Assembly: GCA_010356995.1 (NCBI GenBank)
Contig: ML996696.1
Coordinates: 126,364 to 190,363 of the forward strand
Length of the DNA stretch: 64,000 nucleotides
Direction: 5' to 3'
From: Trichodelitschia bisporula
Lineage: Eukaryota
Below the pieces are notes generated by a model. It had not been told where the DNA came from. It searched no databases and saw only the letters and a list, made by a program, of their open reading frames with translations. A program made the position numbers and the translations under genes. Shown one piece after another: positions 13,232 through 19,019 of the stretch; positions within the stretch are counted from its first letter, which is position 1, and each line of letters begins with the position of its first letter.

Positions 13232-13312
13232 GCGGATGATTATACATTTTTAACCCTGAGTGCTACGGCGCGACGAGGATCAAAACGCAACACTCTAATT
13301 TTTTCATGACGC
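13232..13312 (+). ncRNA. Intronic box C/D snoRNA, copy 1
   Basis: GCG/CGC terminal stem, C box ATGATTA, D' CTGA, D box ATGA. Guide AACACTCTAATTTTTTC is complementary to the conserved 18S rRNA sequence GAAAAAAUUAGAGUGUU. Lies inside a GTAAGA...GCTAAC...CAG intron (13203 to about 13376). Confidence 0.85.
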
Positions 13313-13508
13313 TTATCTTATACGATTCATGTTCCTGAGACCCGGGCGAAGAGATGCTAACGAGGTCAGCCTGCAGATCGTCATCGATTATGAAATGGCC
13401 TCGGACTCCGCCTCGGACTTTAGCGGTGGATTCTCAGTGACGTACATTTTCGTCGTCGGGTTACCGGAAGGGTACGTGGCCTCTTTTCTTCCCCTTCTCA
13501 TTGCTCCT

Positions 13509-13591
13509 GGCGGATGATTATTCCTTTTTAACCCTGATGCTTCGGCTTCTGAAGATCAAAAACAGCAACACTTTAATTTTTTGATGACGCC
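13509..13591 (+). ncRNA. Intronic box C/D snoRNA, copy 2 (paralog of copy 1)
   Basis: GGCG/CGCC stem, ATGATTA, CTTTTTAAC-C-CTGA, C' TGAAGA, AACACTTTAATTTTTT-G-ATGA. Lies inside a GTACGT...GCTGAC...CAG intron (13472 to about 13651). Confidence 0.85.
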
Positions 13592-13820: not shown

Positions 13821-15944
13821 CTACCGCCGCCTACTAACCCCCTTCTTCCCATTCTCCTGCCCCAGCCCACCAACCTCCTCACTCAACTCCTGCCACAGCT
13901 GCCCGATTCCCACTCGCTTCGCAGGCAACATGGAATACTGCAGGCTGTACAGGTTCTTGCGGTGGATGGGCGGGACAAAGCGCCCGGTCGCCAGGCACAG
14001 CATCACCCCGGGCGACGCGTAGTGCTTGCGGATGCGGTTGCCCAGGCTGACGTAGCTGTTGAGCATCGCACTGAGGGGGAGGGGGACGGACTGGTGCGGG
14101 TTAGCTGGGTCTCGCTTCGGGGATGTGTTTACTGGGCTGGGGGACGGTACCTTCAAGTGTACAAGCGCAACATGCGCCTCCCCCTCCTGCACGGGCGGCA
14201 CACACAACTCAAACTTAATCCCCCCCGGCAACCTCCTACTATCCTTAAACCGCAGCATGAGCGCAAAAAGGGGAAAATGATTCAAACACGCAAGACACGT
14301 ATCCAGCCCCGCCTTGAGCATTATAATCGCCATCCGGGCCCCGGCGAACGTGATGTAGAACACGAAGACCGTGGGGAGGAGGAAGAAAAGGAGGGTGAAG
14401 AGGATGGTGCCGAGGAGGAGTTGGTCCAGGTCGTAGTCGCAGGAGTCGATTCGGCTGCGGAGGACGTTGTTTTTTTTGCCTCGGAAGAGGTGGAAGAGCG
14501 ACATGATGATGGTGAGTTGCCAGTGGAAGATCCGGGCGCTGGCGGCGTAGAAACTGTAGACGTGTAGCGTGAGGACGGAGACGAGGTCTGAGAAGAGCGA
14601 TATGGGCATGGTGGCGCCCGCGAAGGCGCTGAAGCCGATGAAGCGGACTACGGCGGGTAAGTGCGGGCGTAGCACTGCCATGCATCCGGCCCAGTAGTCG
14701 ATGACCCAGAGGAACAAGTCGCCTAGGAAAGTAGCGAGTTCGGTGTTGAGCTTGAGGCCTGCGGGCCAGTCCATCAACCACGCGATCATGCGCTGCAGCC
14801 CGTCGATCGTCCACGCATCGAGCACGCGGTCCAGTTGCAGCGCCACCAGGTCCGCGTTGTCGATTATGTAGCTGCCCAGCGCAATACCGATGATCACGTC
14901 GTTCGCGACCAGCCACAAGCTGTTGTAGAAGCGGATATACTCCGGGTGGCTGTGGGTTATACTCTGCCATGTCTGCTTCCGGCGGCGCAGGGTCAGGTAC
15001 TGCTTCGGCCAGTAGCAGAACTGTTGAAGCCGGATGTCGACCTGTTGCGCTGTGGCGCTGACGTCCTTGAGCGCCGCGTGCCCCGGAAACAAGCGCCAGT
15101 CCAGCACGTGCAAGACTAATTCGGCGGCCATGCGGTGCACGATGAGCCCGACGACGAAGAGCCGTGCGAAGACGGGGTATATCCATATTACGATCACGTG
15201 CCACAGGGCCAGTAACACGTAGTCCCACAGGTTAGTCGCGGACTTGACAACGCGTTCGCTGACGCTGAGGGCGCGCCGGGGCCGGGACCCTACGAGGCCT
15301 ACGTTGCGCTGGAGTAGAGCGTTGAGTTCGAAGGAACAGTTTATTTGCTCGATTATGATGGGCAGCAGCTTTTCCTTGGGCGTGTGCGCGTGCCAGACCA
15401 CGGTGTGCTGGCGCAGTTTCTCGACGAGCGCTTCTTTGCGCCGGCGTTCGCGCTCTTCGGCTGCTTCGACGCCGTCAAGGGGGGGGAACCCTTTTTCGCC
15501 GGCTTTGTCGCCTAGCGCGAGGGAGATGGGCGATAGGCTGAGGTACTGCATTTGCGTTGGGTGCGGGCGGTCGAACAGGATGATTTGGAACATGAGTGCC
15601 GTGGCGCCGGTGTAGAGGCGCGGGAAGCGCGTTTTGCGGTCTATGGACACGACGATGGATGCCGGGTTGAAGGCCGCGGGGGGGGAGCGCGGATTCACGG
15701 TCCCGAGGACCTGGAGCGCGCCCTTGCCGCAGCGTTCGAGGACGAGGGATATAGCATACGGACTATTGCGGTAGAGCGTCTCGAGGCGGAGCGCATTGTC
15801 CACGCTACGGAGCTCGACATCCTGCAGCACGGCCACGACCGTCATGTCCAGCTCTGAGTTGCGGAAGCCGACTAGCACGCCTGGCCGCGCTTCGGTGGGC
15901 GCGTCGGACGGCCAGAAGATGCGCATGAGGCCATTGTGGAGCAT
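13821..15944 (-). CDS. GPI1: GPI-GlcNAc transferase subunit Gpi1 (PIG-Q); in-frame 60-nt intron 14091-14150
   Basis: FYNSLWLVANDVIIG, WLMDWPAGLKLNTEL and LFRGKKNNVLRSRIDS...DQLLLGTILFT motifs. Confidence 0.96.
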   Translation of the reverse strand: MLHNGLMRIFWPSDAPTEARPGVLVGFRNSELDMTVVAVLQDVELRSVDNALRLETLYRNSPYAISLVLERCGKGALQVLGTVNPRSPPAAFNPASIVVSIDRKTRFPRLYTGATALMFQIILFDRPHPTQMQYLSLSPISLALGDKAGEKGFPPLDGVEAAEERERRRKEALVEKLRQHTVVWHAHTPKEKLLPIIIEQINCSFELNALLQRNVGLVGSRPRRALSVSERVVKSATNLWDYVLLALWHVIVIWIYPVFARLFVVGLIVHRMAAELVLHVLDWRLFPGHAALKDVSATAQQVDIRLQQFCYWPKQYLTLRRRKQTWQSITHSHPEYIRFYNSLWLVANDVIIGIALGSYIIDNADLVALQLDRVLDAWTIDGLQRMIAWLMDWPAGLKLNTELATFLGDLFLWVIDYWAGCMAVLRPHLPAVVRFIGFSAFAGATMPISLFSDLVSVLTLHVYSFYAASARIFHWQLTIIMSLFHLFRGKKNNVLRSRIDSCDYDLDQLLLGTILFTLLFFLLPTVFVFYITFAGARMAIIMLKAGLDTCLACLNHFPLFALMLRFKDSRRLPGGIKFELCVPPVQEGEAHVALVHLKVPSPSPVNTSPKRDPANPHQSVPLPLSAMLNSYVSLGNRIRKHYASPGVMLCLATGRFVPPIHRKNLYSLQYSMLPAKRVGIGQLWQELSEEVGGLGQENGKKGVSRRR

Positions 15945-15954
15945 GGGTGCTATT

Positions 15955-16321
15955 TTAGAAGGAGCCGCGGCGCTTGAGCTGCTCGCGCGCGGAGATGCCG
16001 CCGCTGGGGGTGCGGGGGTGCTTTGCGGGGTTAGTTGGCGGAGGGCGACGGGGAGGAGACGTACTAGGTCTGTTTCGCGGACGGCGAGGCGCTCGATGGG
16101 GATTATGAATAGGAAGAAGAAGATGGAGAGGATGGTGAAGCCTTTGGCGGCGCGCGTCTGGGAGCGGTTAGGGGTGCGGCAGAAGACAGTGGCATACGCA
16201 CAACAACGCCGTGGTCCCAGGCAAAGATAGCCAGCTCATATAGTCGGGTGACAAGGTCCCACCTTGCGGTAATGTACCCAGCGACGAATATGCCCAAGGT
16301 TATACCGGAGAAGGGGTGCAT
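15955..16321 (-). CDS. 92-aa two-TM membrane protein directly upstream of GPI1; introns 16158-16201 and 16021-16064
   Basis: Two 44-nt canonical introns with CTAAC branch sites give exons of 40+31+22 codons: MHPFSGITLGIFVAGYITARWDLVTRLYELAIFAWDHGVVTRAAKGFTILSIFFFLFIIPIERLAVRETDLHPRTPSGGISAREQLKRRGSF*. Confidence 0.85.
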
Positions 16322-16908
16322 AGGCCTTGGGGGTTTGCGTCTCTGGCGGAGGAGGGCTATTGGCGGTACAGCGGTGAGCGGAGGGGGTTACGGAAGAAAG
16401 CTGTTGTTGTCATTGTCTACAGATGGTTCGGTGGAGGTGGGTGAGTGAAGGCGATCTGGGAGCGCAGATTGTCAATAGAGATGAAGCGGCGGTCCTGGTG
16501 TTGAGGGTCCGTGCGCTTCAACATGGCGCTTCAACGTATATTAAGCGCCTCTGCCGCCTGCCGCCAATGACAGCAGGCGCGAAACAACGGCGCCAAGCTA
16601 TATGAGGAAAGATGTATACTTGGCAACGACGCTGTGGCGCCGCACTGCGATCGGTCAAGTGGCGCATGGTGATGTGGCTGGTTCAGCTCACCTGCAGACT
16701 AGGAACATCGCGTGGTCCATGCCTTTGTACCTTTCCTTCTCTCATCTGCGACAAACCTCTCCACACTTTCATTCACCACTCTTTCTCTATTGTCACACCT
16801 CCACAGGTTCTCTTCGCCCTCCCCACCTCCTTCCTCCACTACTTCATCGCATTTCCACATTCCTTCGCAAACCGAGCTTCCGCTGCCCTCCGTGGCGCAT
16901 CATCAGCT

Positions 16909-18769
16909 ATGGCTGTCTGTAAATTCTGGCAGCGCGGGAGCTGCAATCGCGGATGTGAGCACACTCTGATCTCTACAATACTGGGAGGCTGACCATATAG
17001 CCGAATGCAATTTCGCGCATCCTCCAAACGCGAACCCCAACGCCAACAACAATGCCAGCCGCCCCCAAAACCGCCCTCCGAGCCGTCCGCAAGGCGACCA
17101 CTATCGACAGGGTGACAACTATCGACCGAACAACTTTGGGCGCGGTCGTGACAACAGCCGAGGTCGTGACAACAACCGACCCCCTCCGGGCCCAGCCCAG
17201 CATCATGGCGGAGGCCGCGGCGACGGTGGTGGTGGCTACGACAACAGACGACCGTTCGACACCCGGCAGCAAGACAACCGACACAACGACAACCGGGGCT
17301 ATGACAACCGGAACGACACCCGCGGCCGCAGCCGTGGTCGCGACACACCCGTGAACAAAGAGAAGGAGCGCATCGAGCCCAACATGATCTACCAAGACCT
17401 AATGTGGGAACTCCCCGAATGGCCCCTCTCCTGCTACGCCCCAAAACCCGAAGTTCCCATCAACCTATTCTCCGGCCCAACCGAACAAAGCCCCGAAGAA
17501 GTGCGCATAGAATACTACCTCGCGCGCCTCCAAGGCGCAGAGCCACAAGCAGTTTGTCCCTCCACCGCCCCTCCCGTACGCACCCCGCTAATCCGCTCCT
17601 AGCAAGCAGCCGAAGCTGGCGCCGCTGCCGCCGCCTCGCAGCTGCGCTCCCAGGCCATGGGCGATCTTGCCGGTGCGGTTAAGCATGTCGTTGCTGCGTT
17701 CCGCGAGCATCCGAACCGGTTTGACGTCTGCCGGGAGAGTTCGACTGCGCCGCGCAACTCGACGCTTTTTGCGCGTGATAACCGGCCTCGTGTGCAGCGT
17801 CAAGCGCAGAACGCGCCTGTGCAATCGAATGGGTCGTTTGGACAGCCTAGCCAGCCTGCTTTTAGCCAGCCTAGTCAGCCGGCGTTTGGTCAACCGAGCC
17901 AGCCCTTTGCTCAGCCAACACCCACACCCTTTAGTCAACCGTCACAGCCCGCTTTTGGTCAACCGTCACAACCAGCCTTCGGTCAACCGTCTCAGCCTTC
18001 TAACCCCTTCAATCAACCCGCTCAGCCCGCCTTCAATCAACCCGCTCAACCCGCCTTCGGTCAACCGTCGCAACCCGCTTTTGGCCAACCGTCACAGCCA
18101 ACACAGTCATTCGGCCAGCCCTTCCAGCAACCACAGCAGCAAGCTTTTAGCCAACCCAATCCCTTCCAACAACCTGCCCAACCTGCCTTCGGTCAACCGT
18201 CGCAACCCGCGCAGTCATCCTTTGGCCAACCTTCTGCGCCCACGCCGTTCCAGCAACAACAACCAACCTTCGCCCAACCCCAGCCGCAAGGCATTCCCGC
18301 TACTCCCTTTGGGCGACCACCAGCAGAGAATGCGTTCGGAGGCGATGCCTCGAATTCCTTCGCAGGACAGAACGGTTTCACACAGCAGCAAGCTCCACAA
18401 CAAAACGGCTTCGACCAGCAAAACAGCTTCCAGTCACGGCCTCCGCAGAACGGATTCAGCAATCAAAACCCGTTCCAGACACAACCGCAGCAGAACGGAT
18501 TCAGTCAGCAGAATCCCTTCCAGTCCCAGCCTCAACAGCAGAGCTTTGGACAGAACGGCGCGGGCCGGCAGTTCGACCCTAACCCGATGTTGAACCCGAA
18601 TTTCGATCCCCCGGCTGAGATGTACGTCGATATGGCGCCCTACCACCAGGAGTACCAGAAGGTGGTGCAGACGAAGCGTTTTGTGAATGAGCATATGCCG
18701 GAGTTGGCGCCGCCATTGCGCTGGGTTTTTCCGGTTAGGAATGAGGGGTTGGAGGGGCCGCCGCAGTGA
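16909..18769 (+). CDS. AMO1: CCCH zinc-finger FG nucleoporin (Amo1/Nup42/NUPL2-like); introns 16955-17000 and 17552-17602
   Basis: MAVCKFWQRGSCNRGSECNFAHP zinc finger, PEWPLSCYAP...EQSPEEVR, many AFGQPSQP repeats, and a C-terminal MPELAPP Gle1-binding-like motif. Confidence 0.88.
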
Positions 18770-19019
18770 TCAGATATGGATGCAGCTTTTGAGGATTAGG
18801 GATTTGTAGGATTTGTACTGGTGGATACTGGGGGTTAGGATGGTACTGATACCCATGGTTTTTGTGTTTGTATTGCATAGCAAGGTGGATTATGGGGGTG
18901 ATATTTGTACATGGCTCGAGCGTGCGAGTGGATAGGGCGCGGATCTTGCAATATGCATCTGGCAAGACATGAAATAGTATGGAGAAGTTTGATTTCGAAC
19001 TAGAACTAGCATTCTGACC

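Follow-up and report, generated by a model that had tools for sequence, protein, structure and literature searches.

Leaky scanning is reportedly the route by which human PIG-Y, a small subunit of the glycosylphosphatidylinositol (GPI)-N-acetylglucosaminyltransferase (GPI-GlcNAc transferase), is translated. A published article (PMC13303939) counts PYURF-PIGY among the bicistronic transcripts already characterised. Fungal polycistronic transcripts have also been described, at 321 loci in Fusarium graminearum by long-read complementary DNA (cDNA) and as widespread in mushroom-forming fungi. Bicistronic messenger RNAs (mRNAs) with two conserved proteins and polycistronic transcripts of fungi are therefore known already; what is added here is an uncharacterised protein family tied to an essential pathway. 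The locus lies in a stretch of 64,000 nucleotides (nt) from Trichodelitschia bisporula (GenBank assembly GCA_010356995.1, contig ML996696.1, positions 126,364 to 190,363), called the window below, in which a small three-exon gene ends immediately before the start codon of GPI1. On balance, we consider it probable that a single conserved transcription unit comprises the small gene and GPI1, that its bicistronic mRNA yields two separate proteins, and that Gpi1 is reached mainly by leaky scanning.

The locus resembles PYURF-PIGY in that two conserved open reading frames (ORFs), one of them for a GPI-GlcNAc transferase subunit, would share one mRNA. It differs in that the downstream subunit is the large Gpi1/PIG-Q and not the small PIG-Y, in that the upstream protein, a predicted membrane hairpin, is not detectably related to PreY/PYURF or PIG-Y, and in that the arrangement belongs to Pezizomycotina. 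As in the fungal polycistronic transcripts, two adjacent ORFs of the same strand are found on one transcript, here from assembled contigs. However, those transcripts are mostly read-through of independently transcribed genes with ordinary gaps between them, whereas the gap here is 6-32 nt, the pairing is kept in five classes and the upstream ORF carries a signature of ribosome bypass. The term GPI has no occurrence in the text of the F. graminearum report, whose supplementary list of loci lay outside the search and may include this locus. A literature search, with subscription journals and preprint supplements beyond its reach, returned no description of a bicistronic or polycistronic GPI1/PIG-Q locus.

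In the window, all features of the locus lie on the minus strand. Exon 1 of the small gene (16321-16202) holds the ATG at 16321 and codons 1-40 and is followed by intron 1 (16201-16158; 44 nt, GTGCGT..CTAAC..CAG, phase 0). Exon 2 (16157-16065) holds codons 41-71, with the second hydrophobic helix, and is followed by intron 2 (16064-16021; 44 nt, GTACGT..ACTAAC..AAG, phase 0). Exon 3 (16020-15955) comprises codons 72-92, with the conserved tail HPR....G[IV]SAREQL[KR]RRGSF, and the stop codon TAA (15957-15955), and the spliced product is 92 amino acids (aa) long. After a spacer of 10 nt (15954-15945) follows coding exon 1 of GPI1 (15944-14151), with its ATG at 15944-15942, an out-of-frame ATG at 15934 and an in-frame ATG at 15926. 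An intron of 60 nt (14150-14091) and coding exon 2 (14090-13821), with the stop codon TAG at 13823-13821, complete the gene. The spliced GPI1 product is 687 aa, while the open frame at 15944 runs for 707 codons; this ORF matches the Pfam family Gpi1 (PF05024) over the whole profile, positions 1-265 of 265 (E 7.5e-112, 373.5 bits against a cut-off of 22.2), and Gpi1 is 60-75% identical between classes. The initial annotation of this DNA had placed the TAA and the GPI1 ATG 10 nt apart on the same strand, and re-reading of the sequence returned the same coordinates.

The two genes are found together well beyond the window. A scan of metagenome contigs with the protein alignment returned 80 loci, of 214 confirmed stretches. 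The tail and stop codon of the small ORF are present in 78 of them (two contigs end too early), and 74 extend for at least 130 nt downstream, four being too short. In 74 of these 74 informative loci, the N-terminal motif of Gpi1 (..GLMR[IV]FWP) lies 33-93 nt past the small-ORF stop. Exon structure was solved in 60 loci including the window, which were reduced to 40 non-redundant loci at less than 97% identity of the coding sequence (CDS); the counts below refer to these 40 unless another number is given. The spacer from stop to ATG measures 6-32 nt, with a median of 20. Introns, where present, fall at conserved positions after codons 40 and 71, and either can be missing (both present in 23 loci, none in 12, intron 2 alone in 4 and intron 1 alone in 1). 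The small ORF and GPI1 stand in all three relative frames (15, 13 and 12 loci). Among deposited genomes, the small protein and Gpi1 carry the neighbouring locus tags 006644 and 006645 in Neodothiora, the two Lineolata proteins are assigned to one contig, and in Lineolata, Patellaria, Microthyrium and Monascus each protein pair lies on equal-sized contigs. The linkage goes far beyond chance, and the adjacency and spacing that the initial annotation had proposed to look for across Pezizomycotina are conserved.

Transcript data were available from two runs (X1 and X2) of one sample, which were labelled as RNA by guess. The contigs are assemblies that omit rare forms and carry no local depth, 5' ends, poly(A) sites or strand. 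A spliced contig over both ORFs covers 16499-13768 on the minus strand (16498-13768 in X2, record 3; 16499-13651 and beyond in X1, record 1), so that one contig per run crosses both ORFs and the spacer without interruption. The 5' borders of the contigs nearly coincide in the two runs and lie upstream of the small ORF. Contigs of both runs skip 44 nt at 16020/16065, 44 nt at 16157/16202 and 60 nt at 14090/14151; all three introns are gone exactly at their predicted borders, and the contigs thus derive from spliced RNA. The two-intron structure proposed earlier for the 92-aa product is borne out by these borders. Since intron 2 is spliced out in the main assembled form, this form encodes the 92-aa protein with its own stop codon and not a fusion. 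Splicing that fuses the two ORFs had been named in the initial annotation as an observation that would speak against a bicistronic locus, and in the contigs the dominant spliced form keeps them separate.

Similar contigs occur among the metagenome-derived loci. The cDNA-like contig L026 (2669 nt) is 99.9% identical to the genomic contig L039 minus the small-gene intron and two GPI1 introns, and its 5' end lies 177 nt upstream of the first ATG. L047 and L031, and L016 and L042, are likewise pairs of a cDNA-like contig and its genomic counterpart. The contigs L014, L019, L020 and L026, of 2.6-3.7 kb, each contain a complete ORF of 92-93 aa and an unbroken GPI1 ORF of 711-731 aa. Assembled transcripts over both ORFs are therefore present in several species, and the caveat that applies to assemblies applies here too. 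Positions 1-114 of L047 were considered as an alternative first exon; they match no locus and there is no splice acceptor in L031, so that they are probably an assembly chimera. This foreign stretch of 114 nt joins the small ORF at codon 15. In addition, the 3' splice site of intron 2 in L047 lies 3 nt upstream, which gives an extra CAG.

A search with exon 1 returned 1035 proteins, the best 120 of which are 85-100% identical, and this exon is about 95% identical across five classes of Pezizomycotina. In an alignment of 15 homologues of 92 aa from Eurotiomycetes, Dothideomycetes, Leotiomycetes and Sordariomycetes (Xylonomycetes being represented separately, by a fused model), 49 of the 92 columns are invariant. 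Conservation is best over the first 40 residues, which hardly vary, and the tail ends in ..SAREQL[KR]RRGSF. Entropy at the third positions of fourfold degenerate sites is 1.67-1.81 bits, and 1.81 bits through exon 3, in 35 of the 40 CDSs, namely those of standard length. Synonymous sites are thus saturated, and the constraint acts on the protein and not on RNA or DNA. By these measures, the small protein is under very strong purifying selection. An AlphaFold2 model of the homologue in the first row of the alignment predicts helices at residues 3-36 and 39-71 and a short helix at 82-88, with a mean predicted local distance difference test (pLDDT) score of 82 and scores above 88 at residues 11-60. 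Two hydrophobic helices had been noted earlier for the window product; they are matched by the predicted hairpin of this homologue, which is not the window's own product. Conserved charged residues lie along the long N-terminal helix, and the conserved tail is basic. Arg-Arg-x-Ser is the consensus for cyclic AMP-dependent protein kinase, and the invariant R-R-G-S-F of residues 88-92 (15972-15958, minus strand) fits this pattern.

The start codons of the two ORFs differ in context. At position -3 of the small-ORF AUG there is T in 34 loci and C in 6, a pyrimidine in 40 of 40, and C stands at +4 in 39; in the window (ATG at 16321) both positions are C, a weak context. For a rough background, the first ATGs of long ORFs from the window and the loci were tallied, and 22 of 25 carry a purine at -3. 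At the GPI1 AUG, position -3 is a purine in 34 loci (G 28, A 6). Between the two starts, AUGs are depleted. No internal methionine is found among 3639 residues of the small protein, compared with 107 among 4988 (2.1%) in the N-terminus of Gpi1. In any frame, the ATG density is 60 per 11892 nt (0.0050 per nt), compared with 618 per 30833 nt (0.020 per nt) in the first 900 nt of GPI1. Codon pairs that could form an out-of-frame ATG do so in 39 of 180 cases in the small ORF and in 216 of 386 in GPI1, and each of the 39 ATGs that lie within the small CDS is preceded by a pyrimidine at -3. The choice of individual codons follows the same trend. His37 stands before Gly38, and a CAT codon there would make an ATG flanked by A at -3 and G at +4; CAC is used in 31 of 31 cases. 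For His72, by contrast, 25 of 40 codons are CAT (Fisher 4.7e-9 for His37 vs His72, which, the sequences being related, is no true probability). Arg20, which stands before Trp, has an A-ending codon in 4 of 40 loci compared with 113 of 322 at other Arg codons. Only one AUG intervenes between the starts in the window, at CDS position 82 (T at -3); the out-of-frame ATG of exon 1, in weak context, is recorded at 16238-16236 on the minus strand. The pattern as a whole is the one that selection for leaky scanning would be predicted to leave: strong AUGs are removed, weak AUGs are tolerated, and the first start is weak and the second better. Translation of GPI1 by leaky scanning, as suggested in the initial annotation, thereby gains a conserved signature in 40 loci, albeit one read from sequence.

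Upstream of the small ORF, the window contains an upstream ORF (uORF) in the leader (16413-16357, minus strand; A at -3) of 18 codons and a stop, which ends 35 nt 5' of the small-ORF ATG and falls within the transcript contigs, which begin at 16499/16498. In 19 of the 39 loci with enough upstream DNA, a uORF of at most 10 codons opens no more than 60 nt 5' of the first AUG and ends before or at it. These uORFs are mostly of 3-5 codons, with a purine at -3, and end 0-25 nt before the first AUG, so that reinitiating ribosomes could also skip it.

In the mechanism that we propose, the first cistron would give the 92-aa helical-hairpin membrane protein, and ribosomes would often bypass its AUG in weak context. 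These ribosomes would scan over about 290 nt without meeting any AUG in strong context, and would then start at the GPI1 AUG just past the first stop codon, the leader uORFs probably adding a route by reinitiation past the first AUG. Both ORFs would be read from the same RNA molecule. The small protein would work with Gpi1 in the GPI-GlcNAc transferase, with co-expression setting the ratio of the two; the argument for this putative partnership is solely the conserved co-expression unit.

Several observations weigh against a bicistronic mRNA read by leaky scanning. In the window, the GPI1 AUG and the in-frame AUG at 15926 both have C at -3, and the out-of-frame AUG at 15934, between them, is in good context. 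An out-of-frame AUG is present at CDS position 82 (85 in one locus) in 27 of the 40 loci; it is formed by Tyr28-Glu29 (His28 in three loci), has T at -3, and opens a short ORF whose end is in most cases over 100 nt 5' of the GPI1 AUG. An out-of-frame AUG in strong context lies 8 nt 5' of the GPI1 AUG in 21 of the 40 loci (L001, L002, L005-L008, L012, L015, L018, L021, L023, L025, L034, L039, L043, L051, L054, L060, L064, L073 and L080), and pure leaky scanning does not account for it. This spacer AUG often reads ATGTTGACATG, has a purine at -3 and is absent from the window; its mini-ORF ends 4 to 163 nt beyond the GPI1 start. Coupled use of closely spaced AUGs and local reinitiation are possibilities for such an arrangement. 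Furthermore, the counts are taken from related sequences, so that P values overstate their independence. The contigs, being assemblies, may merge overlapping transcripts, so that a contig over both ORFs is no proof of a single molecule, and the two runs are RNA by guess and from one sample, their splicing indicating an origin from cDNA.

The limit set by the assemblies leads to the first alternative, that two overlapping monocistronic mRNAs have been merged in the contigs. GPI1 would have its own transcription start inside the small gene, and the mRNA of the small gene would end in or after GPI1. Overlap of untranslated regions is common in compact fungal genomes and counts for this explanation, and the contigs do not distinguish molecules. 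In F. graminearum, the 321 loci are described as having read-through polycistronic RNAs beside independent transcripts, which also fits. However, overlapping mRNAs do not explain why the first AUG is weak in 40 of 40 loci, why methionine is absent and why strong AUGs have been lost from exons 1-3. With its synonymous sites saturated, the small CDS shows no sign of a conserved DNA element (a promoter, for example), and the contigs of both runs begin at 16498/16499, 5' of the small ORF. We regard this alternative as unlikely. The claim of a probable bicistronic locus in the initial annotation accordingly stands as to a conserved two-ORF unit bridged by spliced contigs, while its reading as one mRNA is limited by the possible merging of overlapping transcripts.

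A second alternative is that the small ORF is mainly a regulatory uORF, the C-terminal peptide of which acts in the ribosome, so that a pause at its stop codon gates GPI1 initiation or hands ribosomes over to it. The near invariance of the final 12 residues, the very short distance from stop to start in every locus and the overlap of the spacer mini-ORF stop with the GPI1 ATG as ATGA in 3 of 21 loci (L001, L008 and L060) would all be in keeping with such a role. On the other hand, the N-terminal 40 residues are better conserved than the tail, and the model gives a confident predicted helical hairpin with hydrophobic stretches. Reinitiation after an ORF of 92 codons is normally poor. Synonymous variation leaves no conserved RNA motif visible upstream of the stop codon. 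In particular, no motif of the termination upstream ribosome-binding site (TURBS) type was found there, the third positions of exon 3 varying freely (1.81 bits), and a search of the small gene and the start of GPI1 against Rfam gave no match at E <=0.1. A mainly regulatory small ORF is thus quite improbable, although it is possible for the tail to act as an arrest peptide alongside a function of the protein.

A third alternative follows from a feature of the window that was absent from the initial annotation. With intron 2 kept, a single frame leads without a stop codon from exon 2, by way of the intron, exon 3 and the spacer, to GPI1, which would give a fused Gpi1 of 798 aa with the helical hairpin at its N-terminus. 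Exactly this read-through has been deposited for T. bisporula as P0080 (N-acetylglucosaminyl transferase component Gpi1, Dothideomycete), which is identical to it letter for letter, with intron 2 kept and the GPI1 intron removed; the public annotation of the locus is thus a fusion. Many other deposited Gpi1 models of about 790-830 aa likewise have the small protein at the N-terminus. Against these models, intron 2 is spliced out in the contigs of both runs, and its retention fuses the frames in 1 of 40 loci, this window alone. In 13 of the 40 there is no intron 2, so that the stop codon directly parts the ORFs. A fusion would also do away with the conserved tail and stop codon, and in seven fused models that were read the junction differs in each species. 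Such ad hoc junctions suggest gene callers that force one CDS onto one transcript. We therefore give a genuine fused protein very little credence, and the deposited 798-aa model is probably a mis-annotation. As for a conserved fusion, stop-codon read-through or a frameshift, these are ruled out by the distribution of relative frames (15, 13 and 12) together with the single case of fusing retention. Two proteins separated by a stop codon appear to be the conserved state.

Among the fused models are P0005, P0235, P0242, P0254, P0292, P0313, P0335 and further Gpi1 records about 790-830 aa long, which carry the first 70-80 residues of the 92-aa protein, each with another junction. Stand-alone proteins of 92 aa are often labelled 'PIG-Q' or 'hypothetical'. 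The gene models at Gpi1 loci look like a systematic annotation problem, and both the apparent fusions and the 'PIG-Q' names on 92-aa proteins need correction.

Eri1 and PIG-Y are about 70 aa long. The small protein is like Eri1 of yeast and PIG-Y of mammals in being small, in having two predicted hydrophobic helices and in its genetic link to the step that opens GPI synthesis. It is unlike them in its 92 aa, its long charged N-terminal helix and its basic tail, and in that no Pfam family was matched by five homologues. Pfam holds profiles for PIG-Y/Eri1, PIG-P/Gpi19 and DPM2. In a search of the five homologues against Pfam-A at E <=10, neither PIG-Y/Eri1 nor PIG-P/Gpi19, the small subunits to which the initial annotation had pointed, was found, and DPM2 was also without a match; the only row was a chance-level one for Piezo (E 0.11). 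The single exons of the small gene in the window also gave no match to Pfam. With Foldseek, the hairpin model had 0 matches in the PDB at E <=10, and a sequence search of solved structures with the profile of the small protein gave one chance-level row (E 1.5). The same kind of search among solved structures found none for Gpi1/PIG-Q. In the ESM Atlas, the small protein retrieved its own clusters (automatically named 'pig-Q') and a bacterial row at 0.82, with no usable named cluster. A profile search of 1.84 billion representatives gave 259 matches at E <=0.001, and the best 150 of the 259 are close relatives or mis-called ORFs.

Lists of the GPI-GlcNAc transferase subunits, and the links of Eri1 and Gpi2 to Ras and protein kinase A in yeasts, are given in two articles (PMC3184424, PMC11294708). 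A published BLAST survey of Colletotrichum graminicola lists an ERI1 candidate (GLRG_01976) and GPI1 (GLRG_02030), which are not adjacent. Should the small protein be a subunit of the transferase, an extra subunit is likelier than the orthologue of Eri1. Across leotiomyceta, the hairpin may act in the GPI-GlcNAc transferase as a subunit or regulator that has escaped notice, its ratio to Gpi1 being fixed by translation from one mRNA; this is a tentative proposal, which we hold to be possible rather than probable.

GPI-anchor synthesis, an essential process in fungi and a target for antifungals, begins with an enzyme that is a complex of several subunits and is poorly understood. A protein that is more conserved than Gpi1 and tied to GPI1 in five classes, which take in Aspergillus, Penicillium, Coccidioides, Exophiala, Venturia and Alternaria, is a candidate for a missing component or regulator of this complex. 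If the proposed translation from one mRNA is true, this locus would furthermore offer, for fungi, an exceptionally clear natural example of a conserved bicistronic mRNA whose codons bear a signature of selection for leaky scanning.

Two further features flank the locus. Two copies of the C/D-box small nucleolar RNA (snoRNA) Afu_298 (Rfam RF01507) are found on the plus strand at 13232-13311 and 13510-13589, convergent to the 3' end of GPI1 and 278 nt apart, with scores of 57.6 and 61 bits (gathering score 40). The X1 contig departs at 13651, and its loose end matches, by eye, about 13441-13470, which suggests a spliced host transcript with the snoRNAs in its introns. On the other side lies a divergent gene on the plus strand (about 16780-18770), with an ATG near 16896, a start resembling a C-x-C-x-C-x-H zinc finger and a long ORF rich in FG/QP repeats (17657-18769) that is nucleoporin-like in appearance. 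The contigs of this neighbour begin at 16780 and 16825 in the two runs. Given the contig starts at 16499 and 16780, a divergent promoter region of about 300 nt would be common to this gene and to the unit of the small gene and GPI1.

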